Below are positions 30,134-46,808 of a stretch of 64,000 nt of DNA, piece after piece. Position numbers and translations under genes: made by a program. The notes beneath the pieces were generated by a model. That model had not been told where the DNA came from, searched no databases, and saw nothing but the letters and a program-made list of their open reading frames with translations. The stretch lies in contig OZ024753.1 of NCBI GenBank assembly GCA_964016885.1, positions 30,628,001 to 30,692,000 on the forward strand, read 5' to 3'. Each line of letters starts with the position of its first letter. The stretch's first letter is position 1. Source of the DNA: Eledone cirrhosa. Taxonomy: Eukaryota.

Positions 30134-30352
30134 GGTTTCTGATTTAGGCACAAGGCCAGCAATTTTCGGGGAGGGGAAAGTCGATTAAATTGACCCCAGT
30201 GTGTTACTGATTCTGTATTTTATCGGACCCTGTAAGAATGAAAGGCAAAGCTAACCTCGGTGAGATTTAAACTCGGAATGTAAAGGGACGTATCTCTGTG
30301 CCATAAAGCATATTGTTCGACGCTCTGCCGATACTGCCAATCTACCACTCTT
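30134..30352 (-). mobile_element. SINE1 with 16-bp TSD
   Basis: GTCAGACGTGAATATT at 30118-30133 and 30353-30368. Confidence 0.87.
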
Positions 30353-34172: not shown

Positions 34173-34654
34173 TGTATGTATGTATGTGTGTGTGTGGGAG
34201 GAAACCGAATGTCCAAACTGCTAAATAGAAAATTGACCTTGTTAACCGAGCTTGTCAGTTGAAAACTTTCTTAGTGAACTCATGACGTTCTTGCCATTGT
34301 TTGTAGCATTAACTTACGTTTGGTTGGAGTTGAGAAATTCCTATTAAATTCTTTGTTTTGCCCTTAGAGTTTTGTCTTTCGATTTTCTTTTGAAGTATAT
34401 TTTAATCTAAACAATTCAATACCCAATCTTTCAATCCCTAAGAGAACATATATCGGCTGGAATGTAAAGAGTTGAAGAACACCGACATATATATATGTAT
34501 GTGTATTTCTAAAACTTTCCCTAATTTATCTTGCTAATAACGTGAGTCTTTTTAAAAGGTCTCCGTGGAATTTCGTACATTTTAACGTATTTGTATAAAT
34601 TCGTTCATTCAGCTTCCAAAACAACAACAGCAGCAGCAACAACAACAATAGTAA

Positions 34655-35324
<670 letters not shown>

Positions 35325-35326
<2 letters not shown>

Positions 35327-35549
35327 ACACATGCTCTATGGTGCAACACAAAAAATATATGTGCATATATATATGTATATATGTATATATATATATATAT
35401 ATAGTGAATATATGTATGTGTATATATATATAGTGAATATCATTTCACACCTTTTTTTGTTAAGATTTTTGATGTTCTATTAAGAGAGCCGATTTTACTG
35501 AAAAAATCGAATAATGTACACCATTTTACCAGGGGGAAAAAAAATACTG

Positions 35550-35630
<81 letters not shown>

Positions 35631-35812
35631 CACACACACATACACACGCGTACATCAACATACAAAGAGACTTATATATACACACACACACACACACACG
35701 CACTTCTCCGTATAAGACAAAAGCTGAAAAATATATTTTGACATGCTAAAATACCCCCCATTGCTTTCAGACACATTCTTACTGACCATCCCTGCCACCA
35801 CGAATTACTCTG

Positions 35813-35880
<68 letters not shown>

Positions 35881-36385
35881 TTGTTGTGAAAGAGTCATTT
35901 CTCAATCTTGGCGCAAAACCAATTTTTTATTCACATGACCTCTACCGACCAATCAAAATTGTTTTGACCACAAGAATTTTTGCTGGAGCCACTTTTTTAA
36001 TATAAAAACAGTCTTGGCGCAAAATCAATTTTTTACATTCACATGACCTCTACCGACCAATCAAAATTGTTTTGACCACAAGAATTTTTGCAAATTGGAG
36101 CCACTTTTTTAACATAAAAACAGGTAGAATTCCCAAAACTAATCAGATCAGAGCAAACAGCACGGACACTCTATCTCAAAATTATTTTTGAAAAGCATTT
36201 AGAAATGCGCAACCGGTAAAAACTTAAAAACTTAAAACCACAACTGAATACTAACCCATACAATCACTAATACTCTTTTATTCCTAATTAAACCATTTTT
36301 CAACTGTGAACAATTTGTCAGCATTTTCTATTCCGTTTACCAATATATAATAACTTGTGTGTTACACCTCTATTCTTTTAACTAT
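35325..36385 (+). repeat. 5' pseudo-LTR (direct repeat)
   Basis: Colinear with 40097-41264, including microsatellites and an internal ~105-bp tandem duplication (35905/36012). Confidence 0.92.
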
Positions 36386-36495
36386 CATATCCTCACACGA
36401 GATACAGAAAATGCCAACAAAAAACGGATACAACCCTCATCAACTCAAATGAAGAGATCCTACAGGAACTCAAGAAAATCAACACCAACCTATCT

Positions 36496-37722
36496 TTGCT
36501 GGTCGACAAACTTGATTCCACAAATAAGGAAACCGCCACCGGATACAAACCCTCCGAAATCGGCGACAAACTCCAAAACCTTTGCGATACTATCCAAACT
36601 ATGTTCACTACTACCAACCCAGGAAAAACCAACAAAGAACCATGTGAGATTGATTCACACAAAATGAAAATTCGAACAATTCCAAAATGGAACAAATCCC
36701 TCAGAGACAGAAAGTTCTCATTCTGGAAGATGATACAAAATCACAACAAAGCAGAGATATATGAAACATGGCTTAACTCAACCCCTCTAACTCTCCCCCG
36801 TAAACTACAAATAAAGTCCATTCCAAATGAACCCGAACCTCAAAGACACCTTAGGGAAAGAATGGCATTGGAAAAAATGAAGACAGAAATTGAACTTCTT
36901 AAACTGAGGGCCCAGACAAATGAAGAAAAAATCAAAACCATCGATGAAGAGATCCTCCTGGAAATCAACAACAAAACTGAAGGCCCCAAGGTAGAGAAGA
37001 TCTCCAAATTATGGAAAGGGGACTGCAACAGAGAAGAACTGAAATCCCTTCAACGCTGGGAAAAAAGTGCCGCTTGGTTCCTACACTATGAATCGACTTT
37101 TCAAACGGATTACACCTCCAATAACCCGTTCATAAAAATAGGAAAACCCATAACTGAACCGCACAACAACTTCTCAAACCCCCAAGCCTCTAACAAACGA
37201 AGAAGGAAGCACCACACCGAAGATGAACTTCCCAACCTCGCTACCATAAGAAGGAACAAAAACCCAAGAAATCATCTCCCCCAGAATGACATTTACAACT
37301 TTCCCCCTTCAAGGAGACACCATACCAAATCACTCAACTACTACGCGGATGCCTCATCGTCAAACATAGGGAAAAGATACCACCGCCATGATAGATGTAA
37401 CAACTTCCCCGCTTCAAGGGGACAGCAAGGTAATTACCATTTTCTCAACTCTCGCTTCCACAATACACAACAAACCCACACCACACGATACAACAAACAA
37501 CGTAGACCACTTATAACACCACAATACAACATGGCACATAGAAACACACACCCATACTCGCAGTACAGGAACACCCCATTCAATCTACAACCACCAACCC
37601 GAACCACATTTTACAACAACAAGGAATATAACAAACACAGGAGACCACTTAACATCAGCAGACAACCCCTCTACCCCAACCATTTTTTAGACACAGCACA
37701 CAGATACAGGCAAACAAAATAA
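36496..37722 (+). CDS. PLE ORF1: coiled-coil N-half, basic N/R/H-rich C-half; frame open from 36382, true start uncertain
   Basis: 408+ aa uninterrupted; heptad-like LRERMALEKMKTEIELLKLRAQTNEEKIKTIDEEILLEINNK; lies between the pLTR and the RT ORF. Confidence 0.7.
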   Translation: MLVDKLDSTNKETATGYKPSEIGDKLQNLCDTIQTMFTTTNPGKTNKEPCEIDSHKMKIRTIPKWNKSLRDRKFSFWKMIQNHNKAEIYETWLNSTPLTLPRKLQIKSIPNEPEPQRHLRERMALEKMKTEIELLKLRAQTNEEKIKTIDEEILLEINNKTEGPKVEKISKLWKGDCNREELKSLQRWEKSAAWFLHYESTFQTDYTSNNPFIKIGKPITEPHNNFSNPQASNKRRRKHHTEDELPNLATIRRNKNPRNHLPQNDIYNFPPSRRHHTKSLNYYADASSSNIGKRYHRHDRCNNFPASRGQQGNYHFLNSRFHNTQQTHTTRYNKQRRPLITPQYNMAHRNTHPYSQYRNTPFNLQPPTRTTFYNNKEYNKHRRPLNISRQPLYPNHFLDTAHRYRQTK

Positions 37723-40008
37723 CACAAGACAGGGAGGAGAAACCGATAGTAATAAAAATTATCAATCTTACTAGTGCAGAACCAACACCCAACCTTATCA
37801 ACTTACTCTCCAAAGGTCTTAAATTCACACCGACCCCACTACGTCCTAACTACTATGAAATGAAGGAAGACATCACAGACTTCTGTAGAAAGTTACGACT
37901 TAGTGAACAACTATTCGACCAGTACAATGAGGATGAATCATTAGCCAGAAATAGAAGCAATTACACCCCTTCAAAAGGTAGAAATAAAATCCTGGACGAA
38001 TTCTGTGAACACATCACAAACTTCCCTTACCAACACTTGCACAGACAAAAACACAAGCCAAACCTCAACAAGAAAGAATGGGAAGAATTAAATAGATTAA
38101 AAACCGACAGAACTATTACAATTAAAGAGGCTGATAAAGGGAGTACAGTAGTCCTAATGGAGACAGAATTCTATATCAACTTAGCGCTCTCCACTTTGGA
38201 AAACGAAACATACTACGAAAAGGCTGAACACTACAATCAACAGAAAATTATGAGAAACCTAAAAACTCTAATCAACCAATACAAAGAAGGACTCACTAAC
38301 AAGGAATTCAGCTTCATCACAGACTTCACAAGTAAATACAGCCTTTTCTACGGTATCCCTAAAGTACATAAAAGCGAATCAATAAGTAAGGCATGCAAGG
38401 AAGCCACAGACATAGTCATCAATGTCCCCTCACCCAATGATCTCAAATTAAGACCTATAATAGCAGGCCCCGCTTGCGAAACGCACCGTCTTAGCAACTT
38501 CATTGATACCCTTCTCAAACCCTTCCTCAAGCACATCAAAAGCTATATAAGGGACGACCTAGATATGCTCAATCACCTCCCTAATATGCCACTTTCTGAA
38601 CAAACCCTACTAGTGACGTTCGATGTAGTCAACCTATACTCCAACATCCCCCACAACCTAGGAATAGAAGCTATCCAATTCTGGCTGGATAATTTCCACA
38701 ATGAACTCCCACAACGCATCAAAAAAGAATTCGTGATAGAGGGACTCAAATTTATCTTGGAGAACAATTACTTCGTTTTCAATAACAAACCCTACAGGCA
38801 GAAATCTGGGACCGCTATGGGAATGAAAACAGCCCCCCACTTATGCCAACCTAGTCATGGGATACCTGGAAATCACCCTCTACACTAAAGTCCTAAACAA
38901 ATTTGGAAACACCCTCCACTTACACATTGAAAGGAACTGGAAGCGATATCTAGATGACTGCTTCATCCTTTGGCACGAAAACATCGAAAAACTTAAAGAA
39001 TTTCACACCCTTATAAATGGGCTCAACACAAATATTAACTTCACGATGAAATACAGCCATCAACAACTCCCCTTCCTCGACATCCTCATTAAGATCCATA
39101 ACAAAAAAATAGAAACAGACATATACTACAAGCCCACAGACTCCAAGCAATATCTCCCCTTCAACTCTTGCCACCCTAGACACGTTAAAATTAATATTCC
39201 CTACAACTTAGCCAAGAGAATCTGTACTATAGTCTCCAATAAAAACATCTGCTACTTACGGCTACAAGAACTAAAGGACACACTCATAGGCAGGGACTAC
39301 CCTGCATCACTAATTGACAATGGAATCCAACGTGCCCTAAAACTCAGTACCCAGGACCTTAGACACCCTAAAGTAAATCAACCAAAACTAAAAGCTCTTC
39401 CATACATCTCCACACACAACCCCCTCAACAACGAGGCCTTTGACACCATCCTCCAGAACATCCCTGTATTGAAAAAGGACCATAGAATGAACCAAATTCT
39501 ACGAACACACGATATCATAAAGAGCAAAAGACAATCCAAGTCAATGAAAAACATCTTAACACATGCCAAAGTACTGCCAACCACAACAACGAAACCCACA
39601 GTAAAAAAATGCGATAGACCCAACTGTGGCATTTGCATCAACCTAATAGAGGGTTCGGAATTCTATTTCAAAGATGGACAACGTTTTATAGTAAAACACA
39701 ATTTCACATGTGCATCGGAAAATCTAATATATGTATTAACTTGTTCAGGTTGTCGAGAATAATACATAGGCCAGACCAAAAACAGCCTCCGCCAACGCAT
39801 GACTGTCCATAGATCCCAAATCAAAATACGGGAATACAGGAAAATACCACTGAGTGAACACATTGATACCTGTGCCGCACAAAATCATTCCAACTTCAGA
39901 ATCTTTCCCCTCTACAAATTTAAAGATAATGCCACCCACACCCAGCGCATCAGCAAGGAATCTTACTTCATTAACAAATACGGACCCCGTCTAAACACTT
40001 CTCCATAA
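37653..40008 (+). pseudogene. PLE reverse transcriptase plus GIY-YIG endonuclease, with one frameshift (~38833-38838) and one premature stop (39760-39762)
   Basis: IINLTS...LLSKGLKFTPTP, ADKG, FYGIPKVHK, LRPIIA, FDVVNLYSNIP, GTAMG, WKRYLDD, PFLDI, CDRPNCGIC linker, LIYVLTCSGCRE*YIGQT..LRQRMTVH, EH, ESYFINK. Confidence 0.95.
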
Positions 40009-40096
40009 GACGAACCCACAACATACACACGTCAACATACATACCTACATCAGCACACATCTCTACCCACATATAAACACAATGACATACGTAAAC

Positions 40097-40148
40097 ACAC
40101 ATGCTCTATGGTGCAACACAAAAAAATATATGTGCATATATATATGTA

Positions 40149-40244
<96 letters not shown>

Positions 40245-40373
40245 ATATATGTATGTGTATATATATATATAGTGAATATCATTTCACACCTTTTTTTGTT
40301 AAGATTTTTGATGTTCTATTAAGAGAACCCATTTTACTGAAAAAATCGAATAATGTACACCATTTTACCAGGG

Positions 40374-40405
<32 letters not shown>

Positions 40406-40454
40406 TAGTCCACCCACACACATACACACGCGTACATCAACATACAAAGAGACT

Positions 40455-40487
<33 letters not shown>

Positions 40488-40589
40488 GCACTTCTCCGTA
40501 TAAGACAAAAGCTGAAAAATATCTTTTGACATGCTAAAATACCCCCCATTGCTTTCAGACACATTCTTACTGACCATCGAATTACTCTG

Positions 40590-40647
<58 letters not shown>

Positions 40648-40719
40648 ATCTTAATAGCCATTTGACACACATCGCTGCTAACCATTATCACAACATCGAA
40701 CACCTTACTACTACTACTA

Positions 40720-40759
<40 letters not shown>

Positions 40760-41257
40760 TTGTTGTGAAAGAGTCATTTCTCAATCTTGGCGCAAAACCA
40801 ATTTTTTATTCACATGACCTCTACCGACCAATCAAAATTGTTTTGACCACAAGAATTTTTGCTGGAGCCACTTTTTTAACATAAAAACAGTCTTGGCGCA
40901 AAATCAATTTTTTACATTCACATGACCTCTACCGACCAATCAAAATTGTTTTGACCACAAGAATTTTTGCAAATTGGAGCCACTTTTTTAACATAAAAAC
41001 AGGTAGAATTCCCAAAACTAATCAGATCAGAGCAAACAACACGGACACTCTATCTCAAAATTATGTTTGAAAAGCATTTAGAAATGCGCAACCGGTAAAA
41101 ACTTAAAAACTTAAAACCACAACTGAATACTAACCCATACAATCACTAATACTCTTTTATTCCTAATTAAACCATTTTTCAACTGTGAACAATTTGTCAG
41201 CATTTTCTATTCCGTTTACCAATATATAATAACTTGTGTGTTACACCTCTATTCTTT

Positions 41258-41264
<7 letters not shown>
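40097..41264 (+). repeat. 3' pseudo-LTR
   Basis: Direct repeat of 35325-36385. Confidence 0.92.
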
Positions 41265-41311
<47 letters not shown>

Positions 41312-43017: not shown

Positions 43018-43160
43018 TTCACTGGTGTTTTATTTTATCGACACTGGGGTAGTGAAAGACAAAGCTGACCGTAGAAGATTTTAGGCTCAGAAAGTATTAG
43101 ACTTAACTAAAAACCGAAAAGCATGTTGTTTGACACTCTACTGATTCTGCCTATCTACTA
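43018..43160 (-). mobile_element. Diverged SINE1
   Basis: ACTGGTGTTTTATTTTATCGAC...GAAAGACAAAG. Confidence 0.6.
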
Positions 43161-43299
43161 CCATAGCTGTTTTATGATATTACCAGTGCAATAACATTCA
43201 TGAATTAAGGACTGAGAAAGTTATTCATTTGTTGCTATTGGTGTTCAACCCTAGGCCAGCTTTGATCGGTGCAGTTGTAAACATCCCGATAGAGTTGTT

Positions 43300-44010
43300 T
43301 CTGTTTTCTTCTTTCTGAAACTGTGTATGTTGTTTTTTTACTTTCTGAAACTGTGTATCCTGTTTATTTATTTCTGAAACTGTATGCCGTTTTTCTTTCT
43401 TTCTGAAACTGTACATGCTGTTTTTTTTTTTTCTTTCTGAAACTGTACATGCTGTTTTTTTTTTTTTTCTTTCTGAAACTGTACATGCTGTTTTGTTTTT
43501 TTTTCTTTCTGAAACTGTACATGCTGTTTTTTTTTCTTTCTGAAACTGTACATGCTGTTTTTTTTTCTTTCTGAAACTGTATATGGTGTTTTTTCCTTTC
43601 TGAAACTGTATATGCTGTTTTTATTTATTTCTGAAACTGTACATGCTGTTTTTTTCTTTCTGAAACTGTATATGGTGTTTTTTCCTTTCTGAAACTGTAT
43701 ATGGTGTTTTTTCCTTTCTGAAACTGTATATGCTGTTTTTATTTATTTCTGAAACTGTATATAGTGTTTTTTTTTTCTTTCTGAAACTGTATATGGTGTT
43801 TTCTCTTTCTGAAACTGTATATGGTGTTTTCTCTTTCTGAAACTGTATATGCTGTTTTTATTTATTTCTGAAACTGTATATGGTGTTTTTTTTTCTTTCT
43901 GAAACTGTATATGGTGTTTTCTCTTTCTGAAACTGTATATGGTGTTTTTTTCTTTCTAAAACTGTATATGGTGTTTTCTCTTTCTGAAACTGTACATGCT
44001 GTATTTTTTA
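43300..44010. repeat. 30-37-bp minisatellite TTTCTGAAACTGTAYATGSTG(T)n
   Basis: About 21 units. Confidence 0.93.
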
Positions 44011-44088
44011 CTGCTTTTCTTCTTTTCTCTCTTTTTCCTTAAAGATATAGAGTAAGAGAGCACACACACAAATATATATCTGTGTGTG

Positions 44089-46040: not shown

Positions 46041-46618
46041 ATATATATATATATATATAAATGTAAGAAGATGGATTCGTCCTTGCATATAACATTAAAA
46101 CTAAAAAAAAAGATTTCAAACCTGTAAAAGTCAATAATGCCACCAACACAAAGTCATCTACAAACAAAACAATAAAGATTTAAAGGCAAGGAGCCTTGCT
46201 AATGATTTTGTTGAGTATTTTTCCACAGTAATTGTCTTCAAGGTTTCTAATCAAGTAATTTCTTCAACAGATACGGTAAATTTTTATATTTTATATTTAC
46301 TTTACCATAAGGAATAGACTGAGAAACGGGGGGGGGGGGGGGGGGGGGCTGGAAGCATTTCTGAATTGGGAAGCGGCAATTTGGTCAATTTAATTGAAAT
46401 GATAAGTTTAGCTCCTTGCAATCTTAAATGGTCATCAAACTTCGATAAGCGATAAACATAACATGTACATAAATTGTAGCGCATATACAAATAGATGGGT
46501 GTTTTGGTAGTTTGGGGAGATCCACCACCCCCGAGAAAGTATATCTGTCATATTACATTCTGTGCTTAATGTATATTTTAAACAACAAAACTAACTCTTA
46601 TTCATTGACTAATCAAAT

Positions 46619-46808
46619 AACTGTTTCTACTTTAGGCACAAGGCCAGCAAATTACCCAGTGCATTACTGGTACTTTATTTTATCGACCCCGTAAGGATGA
46701 AAGGCAAAGTCAACCTCGGCGGGATTTGAACTCAGATCGTAAAGGGACGTAACTATGCTGGAAAGCATGGCGTCCGACCCTCTACCGATACTGCCAATCC
46801 ACCGCCCT
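46619..46808 (-). mobile_element. Full-length SINE1 with ATTGACTAATCAAATAAC TSD
   Basis: Direct repeat at 46604 and 46809. Confidence 0.9.

Follow-up and report, generated by a model that had tools for sequence, protein, structure and literature searches.

How is a protein made from a reading frame that lacks a start codon? This question is raised by a Penelope-like element (PLE) of Eledone cirrhosa, found in the window analysed here (64,000 nucleotides; GenBank assembly GCA_964016885.1, contig OZ024753.1, positions 30,628,001 to 30,692,000 of the forward strand). The full-length element lies at 34988-41255 on the plus strand and consists of an inverted partial pseudo-long terminal repeat (pLTR), a 5′ pLTR, a first open reading frame (ORF1), a second frame (ORF2) for a reverse transcriptase (RT) with a GIY-YIG endonuclease (EN), and a 3′ pLTR, with a (TA)n tract at each outer end. 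A first-pass annotation had noted that the RT frame, which is −1 relative to ORF1, is open from 37653 and that its first ATG (37860) lies 3′ of the conserved motif IINLTS...LSKGLKFTP. Both observations were confirmed. It had proposed that RT-EN is reached by a gag/pol-like −1 frameshift at U-UUU-UUA, by alternative splicing, or by both. A conserved site, its register and the opening of the RT frame across divergent families support the frameshift, and RT-EN is very probably made by it as an ORF1-RT-EN fusion. The features concerned are as follows.

36411-37722, plus strand: ORF1, 436 aa in intact copies, with its own ATG at 36411-36413 (copy comparison); the protein ends in ...HFLDTAHRYRQTK and a stop; the frame is open over 36382-37722 in the window copy
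37683-37689, plus strand: slippery heptamer T-TTT-TTA, His-Phe-Leu in ORF1 and Phe-Phe in the RT frame (copies and relatives)
37683-40008, plus strand: ORF2 (RT, zinc (Zn) linker and GIY-YIG) in the −1 frame; intact copies have 774 codons counted from the T run, without an ATG until codon 60; broken in the window copy at 38833-38838 and 39760
37690-37725, plus strand: 10-codon spacer without structure, ORF1 stop TAA at 37720-37722, then CAC (folding and comparison)

The junction between the two frames

The heptamer is present in the window as first reported, is followed by G at 37690, and is the sole T6 run of the 3.6-kb coding body. A DNA search of the 3.0 Gb host genome yielded 1,453 candidates; of 40 that were scored, 38 were 100% identical across the whole junction query (37560-37900). 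Among the first 100 listed of 382 exact-flank matches, the junction had T6 in 89, T7 in 4, T5 in 4 and another form in 3. The identical copies and the 89 T6 junctions ruled out an assembly error or an indel private to this copy. Whether other copies would be continuous or in two frames had been put forward as a check. The mobile form is in two frames, since both ORFs are open, with T6, in 16/40 fetched copies. In-frame fusions are scattered single copies: the 4 listed T7 junctions, locus L094 (T7) and locus L068 (+1 insertion 17 nt upstream). Copy L205 of family C, another family of this genome, is fused by a deletion.

T-TTT-TT(A/G) was found in the same register at the end of the upstream ORF in 14 two-ORF families or loci. 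These comprise the window family, four other families of this genome (A, B, C and F) and nine external loci with RT identity of 31-46% (L101, L102, L103, L104, L107, L110, L111, L123 and L181). L108 and L109 likewise carry an in-register T6 heptamer. A profile of ORF1 matched the upstream frames of L101-L104, L107-L109, L111 and L181, with no match in L110 (a short fragment) or L123. Twenty loci came from the other families of this genome, 7 with an in-frame T6, 1 with T7 and 12 decayed or truncated without either; most of the 96 external loci were other RTs, distant PLEs with a single ORF, or loci without upstream sequence.

The register is constant though the distance from the heptamer to the LxKGLKF motif varies from 108 to 252 nt across families. 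The RT frame closes 0-15 codons 5′ of the heptamer (0.17 stops per codon) and is open through the spacer in 14/14. Because it is closed just 5′ of the heptamer and open 3′ of it, the heptamer, rather than the stop, appears to be where the frame is entered. At the protein level, FL occurs within the last 45 aa of 58 of the 69 ORF1 homologues of at least 330 aa, compared with 1/69 and 3/69 in control windows and a mean of 6.1 and maximum of 14 (of 69) upon shuffling. The residue preceding F is never K, E, Q, M or W (0/58, against a background of 19.6%), which is the signature of a codon ending in T. When conservation of the T run and the G after it was checked, T6 was kept in copies and relatives and the following G or AG was not, no AG being present after the T run in 5/14 families. 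The conserved register, the frame opening and the families without AG favour −1 slippage over splicing, reinitiation and transcription slippage.

In a tree built on fetched, unnamed loci, eight T6 elements form one clade (Shimodaira-Hasegawa-like approximate likelihood ratio test, SH-aLRT, 99) among the elements with a Zn linker. Judged by sequence, the heptamer marks this clade and the distant L123, not all endonuclease-bearing (EN+) PLEs.

Locus L123 (1920-3848) encodes a distant PLE-like RT (31% identity) and a 640-aa ORF1 unrelated to that of the window. The latter had no Pfam match and ends with a DGVH motif, which we take to be esterase-like. L123 carries T-TTT-TTA plus a spacer of the same 10-codon length despite its unrelated ORF1, and the cassette may be shared between different ORF1 types. 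PLE RT loci L181-L196 were found in bacterial metagenome-assembled genome records (Bacteroidota, Campylobacteraceae, Poribacteria and others), most likely through contamination of the bins by host animals.

Distance from the heptamer to the ORF1 stop

A canonical −1 cassette has an X_XXY_YYZ heptamer in the 0-frame register, from which the −1 ORF is open, and a stem-loop or pseudoknot 5-9 nt downstream of the slip site. The window family has the former and lacks the latter. The first-pass annotation saw no hairpin just 3′ of the heptamer, and indeed no stem of at least 5 bp starts within 40 nt and the minimum free energy of the next 45 nt is 0.0 kcal. Structure tests covered pairing up to 110 nt. 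No stem follows the site in L107, L110 or L123, and folding z-scores were ~0 for most relatives.

Sense codons from the slippery Leu to the ORF1 stop were counted in 76 rows, after 12 of 91 motif-bearing proteins (truncated or domain-internal matches) and 3 more of <250 aa had been left out and the intact copy L085 added. The spacer is exactly 10 codons in 25/76 homologues, longer in 50 and shorter only in P0002 (5 codons). Under a geometric null fitted to the long tails, 42 would be shorter and 5.9 at ten. Outside a 40-row clade of a quick tree, the ten-codon spacer is present in 24 of 36 rows, across long branches. The ten spacer residues themselves are saturated (9.8% identity versus 7.0% shuffled; median core identity 34%). 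At the DNA level the ten-codon spacer is present in 7/14 families, with TAA, TAG and TGA all used as the stop, and 15/21 scored copies of sister family F have TGA where the window family has TAA. What is conserved of the ORF1 stop is its position, not its codon.

C directly follows the stop in 5/7 ten-spacer families versus 0/7 longer-spacer families, and a C at +4 weakens termination. Several close relatives (L202, L203, L207 and L101; P0001 and P0124-P0126) have TGG (Trp) as codon 11 and their stop at 17-26, most commonly at 20, a spacing that would be about two ribosome lengths. In family C this TGG gives rise to an ATG in the RT frame, 30 nt 3′ of the heptamer.

According to the available part of PMC6815119, a ribosome stalled at UGA in E. 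coli reporters made the trailing ribosome slip −1 more often when the spacer had 8-10 codons, with a peak at 9. Mouse disomes protect 59-60 or 62-63 nt, in two stacked states one codon apart (PMC7397865, in excerpt). By arithmetic, these footprints would separate the two A-site codons by about 9 or 10 codons.

Proposed translation of RT-EN and its alternatives

We propose that most ribosomes would keep frame and release the 436-aa ORF1 protein, and that a minority would slip −1 on U-UUU-UUA and continue into RT-EN, for a fusion of 426 + 772 = 1,198 aa. The result would be a ratio of ORF1 to ORF1-RT-EN like that of gag to gag-pol. The slip may be triggered when a ribosome on the heptamer stacks behind one that is terminating at the ORF1 stop ten codons on. 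By our arithmetic, a leading ribosome with the stop in its A site would place the A site of the trailing one on the slippery Leu or the next codon, so that the blocked step would be translocation across the slippery codons. Such elements appear to make up a two-ORF, −1 frameshifting clade of EN+ PLEs, and their spacing rule points to a ribosome-collision stimulator. As a whole this explanation, a frameshift fusion likely triggered by collision, is probable. Whether the terminating ribosome is the main stimulator in the ten-codon lineages is finely balanced. That selection holds the ten-codon distance, as collision would imply, is a tentative suggestion. Equally tentative is the broader claim that a large clade of animal PLEs uses a natural structure-free −1 frameshift stimulated by a slowly terminating ribosome one stacked-ribosome length on.

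Several observations weigh against this proposal. The heptamer ends in G (UUUUUUG), a non-standard last base, in 3/14 families. L134 and L165 have an upstream ORF overlapping in −1 without a T6 run, and the ORF is single and long in a Zn-linker sister group (L113, L115, L117 and L187). Spacers of 11-41 codons occur in 50/76 rows, of 19-23 in three families of this genome, and of 11-40 in all but 1 row of the 40-row clade of the quick tree; because of these longer spacers a roadblock at the stop cannot be universal. The rows are related, so P values from the null overstate independence, and the label 'ten' is clustered on the quick tree (9 changes versus 21.3 shuffled). A hairpin is present 3′ of the site in L101 (z −3.5), with weaker ones in L104 and L181. 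Finally, TTTTTTAG contains a plausible branch point and pyrimidine tract for a splice onto 37691.

The hairpins bear on an explanation that keeps the slip on the heptamer but has it aided by local or long-range structure, by a trans-acting protein or by nothing (basal U6A slippage), with the 10-codon spacing inherited or set by a requirement for the C-terminal peptide of the ORF1 protein (ORF1p). GC content is often higher in the 33 nt after the site than in the 60 that follow, two thirds of the homologues have longer, often G-rich tails, and a small amount of RT may suffice. This account is possible, though rather doubtful, since the stem is missing from the window family, L107, L110 and L123, the length of the spacer is fixed while its sequence is saturated, and the stop changes identity and keeps position. 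RT-EN could instead come from a spliced message in which the AG at 37689-37690 is joined to the pLTR donor (36215). The first-pass annotation rightly stated that this join puts the pLTR ATG in the RT frame; it does so in 21/21 copies that hold all sites, the other 19/40 lacking some site. Moreover, AG follows T6 in 9/14 families, a G-starting residue follows FL in 44/58 homologues, and PLEs keep introns (PMC8557442, in the part available). Splicing is nevertheless unlikely, because AG is absent in 5/14 families and because a splice site would not fix the codon register of ORF1, yet FL is in frame in 58/69. The pLTR ATG is also not conserved, being CTG in family B. None of three joined sequences that retrotransposed spliced forms would leave had a match in the genome (0 matches), which is weak evidence since PLEs keep introns.

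The remaining two explanations were given still less weight. Termination-reinitiation at or near the ORF1 stop, AUGA-like or AUG-independent, would make U6 a tethering motif, and AUG-independent restart is a precedent from LINE-1 ORF2. A sister family reads A-TGA, its ATG overlapping the stop, family C has the RT-frame ATG described above, and many RT homologues are predicted with an M ~25 aa ahead of the LxKGLKF motif. However, at this position the other ten-spacer families have ATA, GTA or CTA, and further families GTG or CTG. Reinitiation does not need an RT frame that is open from the heptamer, as it is in 14/14, and the heptamer register is kept even with the stop 11-41 codons off, making this route very improbable. 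Slippage of Pol II on T6 would add one U and yield in-frame fusion transcripts. T6 is strictly kept and a single added U does join the frames, but a six-base run is short for Pol II slippage and the register is always T-TTT-TTR, which slippage during transcription would not require. T7 is also as rare as T5 (4 versus 4 of the 100 listed), though U7 RNAs would retrotranspose in cis. We consider this explanation scarcely credible.

The −1 slip on the heptamer has parallels among known systems. An ORF1 separable by a frameshift with a pseudoknot belongs to Athena. The endonuclease-lacking Athena and Terminon PLEs also have a helical (coiled-coil) ORF1 upstream of the PLE RT, joined by a frameshift; unlike them, the window element has an endonuclease (GIY-YIG), genome-wide dispersal and no pseudoknot. 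The HIV-1 site uses a 3′ stem-loop, whereas the conserved 3′ feature here is the distance to the 0-frame stop, with no stem-loop found. The heptamer, its register and the logic of a structural ORF versus an enzyme fusion are shared with HIV-1 gag-pol U_UUU_UUA, as described in the available part of PMC5009743. The E. coli collision reporters are alike in having an unstructured slippery heptamer and a slow stop one ribosome length on, with the 9-codon peak (PMC6815119, in part). Those reporters are artificial and bacterial, whereas this putative cassette is natural, eukaryotic and conserved and has 10 codons. Stop-position effects are described for SARS-CoV-2 (PMC8168617) and pea enation mosaic virus (PMC5009743), whose stops lie 5 codons or 3 nt away. 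In the parts of these papers available, the SARS-CoV-2 stop is proposed to let the pseudoknot refold, and neither virus is described with a roadblock one footprint on.

Canonical EN+ PLEs are single-ORF according to the abstract of PMC8557442, while the mobile form here has two frames, with a separate conserved ORF1 in another frame. The legend of Fig. 1 of that paper, which does not name the clade concerned, says that a frameshift with a pseudoknot can set ORF1 apart, and through this legend a frameshift may have been described earlier for Neptune. In the accessible text of PMC12602865, killifish Neptune has two non-overlapping ORFs and no frameshift analysis is given. Upstream ORFs are noted, without a frameshift, in esterase-bearing PLEs (PMC3905857 and PMC5408684, in excerpt) and, in similarly partial text, in Chara Chlamys. 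A literature search of titles and abstract openings, including few subscription journals, turned up no report of a conserved U-UUU-UUR site in EN+ PLEs and, in abstract openings, no natural eukaryotic slip-to-stop spacing of one ribosome. The available portions of PMC3849965, PMC5718144, PMC6431247, PMC3846280, PMC3905857 and 10.64898/2026.07.22.740005 hold nothing on the junction.

A frameshift fusion would be a concrete answer to how the ATG-less RT-EN frames of many EN+ PLEs are translated. An annotated '750-aa RT' is probably the rear half of a fusion of ~1,200 aa whose front belongs to an unannotated ORF1 family. In the literature searched, engineered bacterial reporters are so far the sole setting in which the terminating ribosome acts as a stimulator. 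Should the 10-codon rule reflect collisions, these elements would provide a natural case and link frameshifting to ribosome traffic, and RT output would scale with ribosome load and termination speed.

The element, its 5′ end and its copies

The RT-EN frame resembles that of Neptune PLEs. In the intact copy L085, RVT_1 (31.2 bits) and GIY-YIG (28.8 bits) each exceeded the Pfam cut-off. The linker lies upstream of GIY-YIG.

39610-39636, plus strand: C-x4-C-x2-C linker motif CDRPNCGIC (translation; Neptune-like spacing by eye)

The linker and CCHH residues read CDRPNCGIC...~25 aa...C...YVLTCSGC...YIG...H...H, which is CX2-5CxxC with the long spacing. By-eye comparison with the EN alignment of PMC8557442 places this spacing with Neptune and not with Nematis. 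As far as that paper was available, Neptune EN+ PLEs likewise have an RT with a C-terminal GIY-YIG, CCHH and a long CX2-5CxxC linker, direct and inverted pLTRs and (TA)n targets, all of which are present here, and the RT3 and RT4 motifs resemble, by eye, those of XtropNep4 and DreriNep1. On these features and this by-eye alignment, the element is Neptune-like, an EN+ PLE with two ORFs. The pLTR had no Rfam hammerhead match at E≤5 and no CTGANGA..GAAA, though minimal PLE hammerheads may escape such scans.

The sequence of ORF1 has an N-terminal ~235 aa that is helical, then a disordered tail rich in R, N, Q and P. An AlphaFold model has long helices at ~76-233, with a predicted local distance difference test score mostly >90 from 91 to 240, and a disordered basic tail. 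Homologues fall into 685 clusters (50% identity) at E≤1e-3. Pfam gave no family common to more than one of 90 members, and viral contigs held no relative. Fold searches returned generic helical bundles only: none at E≤0.001 with Foldseek against the PDB, and a best VIA match of Z 8.8 (root-mean-square deviation 5.6 Å). Atlas matches were all <0.8, unnamed and mostly molluscan. Thus sequence, Pfam and fold searches found no homologue of known function. No fused ORF1 homologue of 782-2230 aa was found at E≤0.001, a weak test. The prediction for ORF1p is a helical domain that multimerises and carries a disordered, basic tail; by analogy with other ORF1 and Gag proteins, it likely packages RNA.

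The 5′ end was re-examined with three further features.

36205-36221, plus strand: pLTR ATG and donor-like CCG/GTAAAA; read unspliced, a 4-codon upstream ORF (MRNR and a stop)
36377-36407, plus strand: candidate branch point, pyrimidine tract and TACAG acceptor, 3 nt upstream of the ORF1 ATG; putative intron of the 5′ untranslated region (UTR)
36419-36424, plus strand: A6 run with one A private to the window copy, which detaches the ORF1 ATG (copy comparison)

The first-pass annotation had held that neither ORF has a usable ATG at its start. For ORF1 this is incorrect, since 37/37 other copies covering 36419-36424 have A5 and start ORF1 at 36411-36413; contigs of run X1 are further evidence on the extra A. 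A start at M is predicted in 68/69 full-length ORF1 homologues, and ...GATACAGAAAATG, which precedes the ORF1 ATG, is retained in related families. The donor-like CCG/GTAAAA lies at 36213-36221, and AGs end at 36401 and 36407. Joining the donor to either was said to put the pLTR ATG in the ORF1 frame, but the product is out of frame in 21/21 copies. A single pLTR ATG serving two acceptors thus depends on the one-base insertion private to the window copy. In family B, 92 of the first 100 listed matches to the pLTR motif (14,943 in all) have CTG at the ATG position, and CCG/GTAAA is kept. Loss of the ATG with retention of the donor-like motif fits a non-coding 5′-UTR intron. Acceptor-like motifs are also conserved across families, CACGAGATACAGAAAATG (36377-36407 region) being kept in related families at 69-78% identity. 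A non-coding intron at 36216-36407 is plausible, like the 5′-UTR introns described for Penelope and Chlamys-3 in the available part of PMC8557442. Among contigs from four runs of unknown kind, 0 of the 15 joints listed, of 33, had GT..AG ends; their depth is like that of genomic DNA and uninformative on splicing or expression.

The repeats of the element are listed below.

34988-35326, minus strand: inverted partial pLTR copy, 99% complementary to 36011-36349; its outer end adjoins (TA)n
35355-36384, plus strand: 5′ pLTR, a direct repeat of the 3′ end of the element, with a microsatellite-rich inner half (repeat matches)
40090-41255, plus strand: 3′ pLTR, terminating at the (TA)n tract (repeat match)

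The pLTRs match over 35843-36390 versus 40722-41268 (99.3%) and over 35355-35868 versus 40190-40645. The PLE family is young, high-copy and dispersed genome-wide, and the 40 fetched copies have a mean identity of 98.6% to the intact copy. The nearest homologues that carry a name come from bivalves. The window copy itself is decayed, with an extra C in the RT at 38833-38838 that is absent from 39/40 copies and a TAA at 39760 within the endonuclease, where 34/36 copies have CAA. In contigs of run X1 (36020-36427), depth at the pLTR end is 100-500x that at the ORF1 start and climbs steadily along the body toward its 3′ end, a pattern that solo pLTR pieces and 5′ truncation would produce. Within the pLTR, a ~104-bp tandem duplication (35905-36120) differs between copies in unit number or length. 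The family B pLTR motif has its 14,943 genome matches often in tight inverted pairs ~70-350 bp apart, which suggests many short non-autonomous derivatives.

A dispersed short repeat that looks like a short interspersed nuclear element (SINE) flanks the PLE at 30205-30351, 34653-34853, 43019-43164 and 46616-46808. The inverted pLTR begins inside the (TA)n tail adjoining one of these SINE-like copies. An array at 43299-44014 has ~23 copies of a 28-36-bp unit with TTTCTGAAACTGTA.

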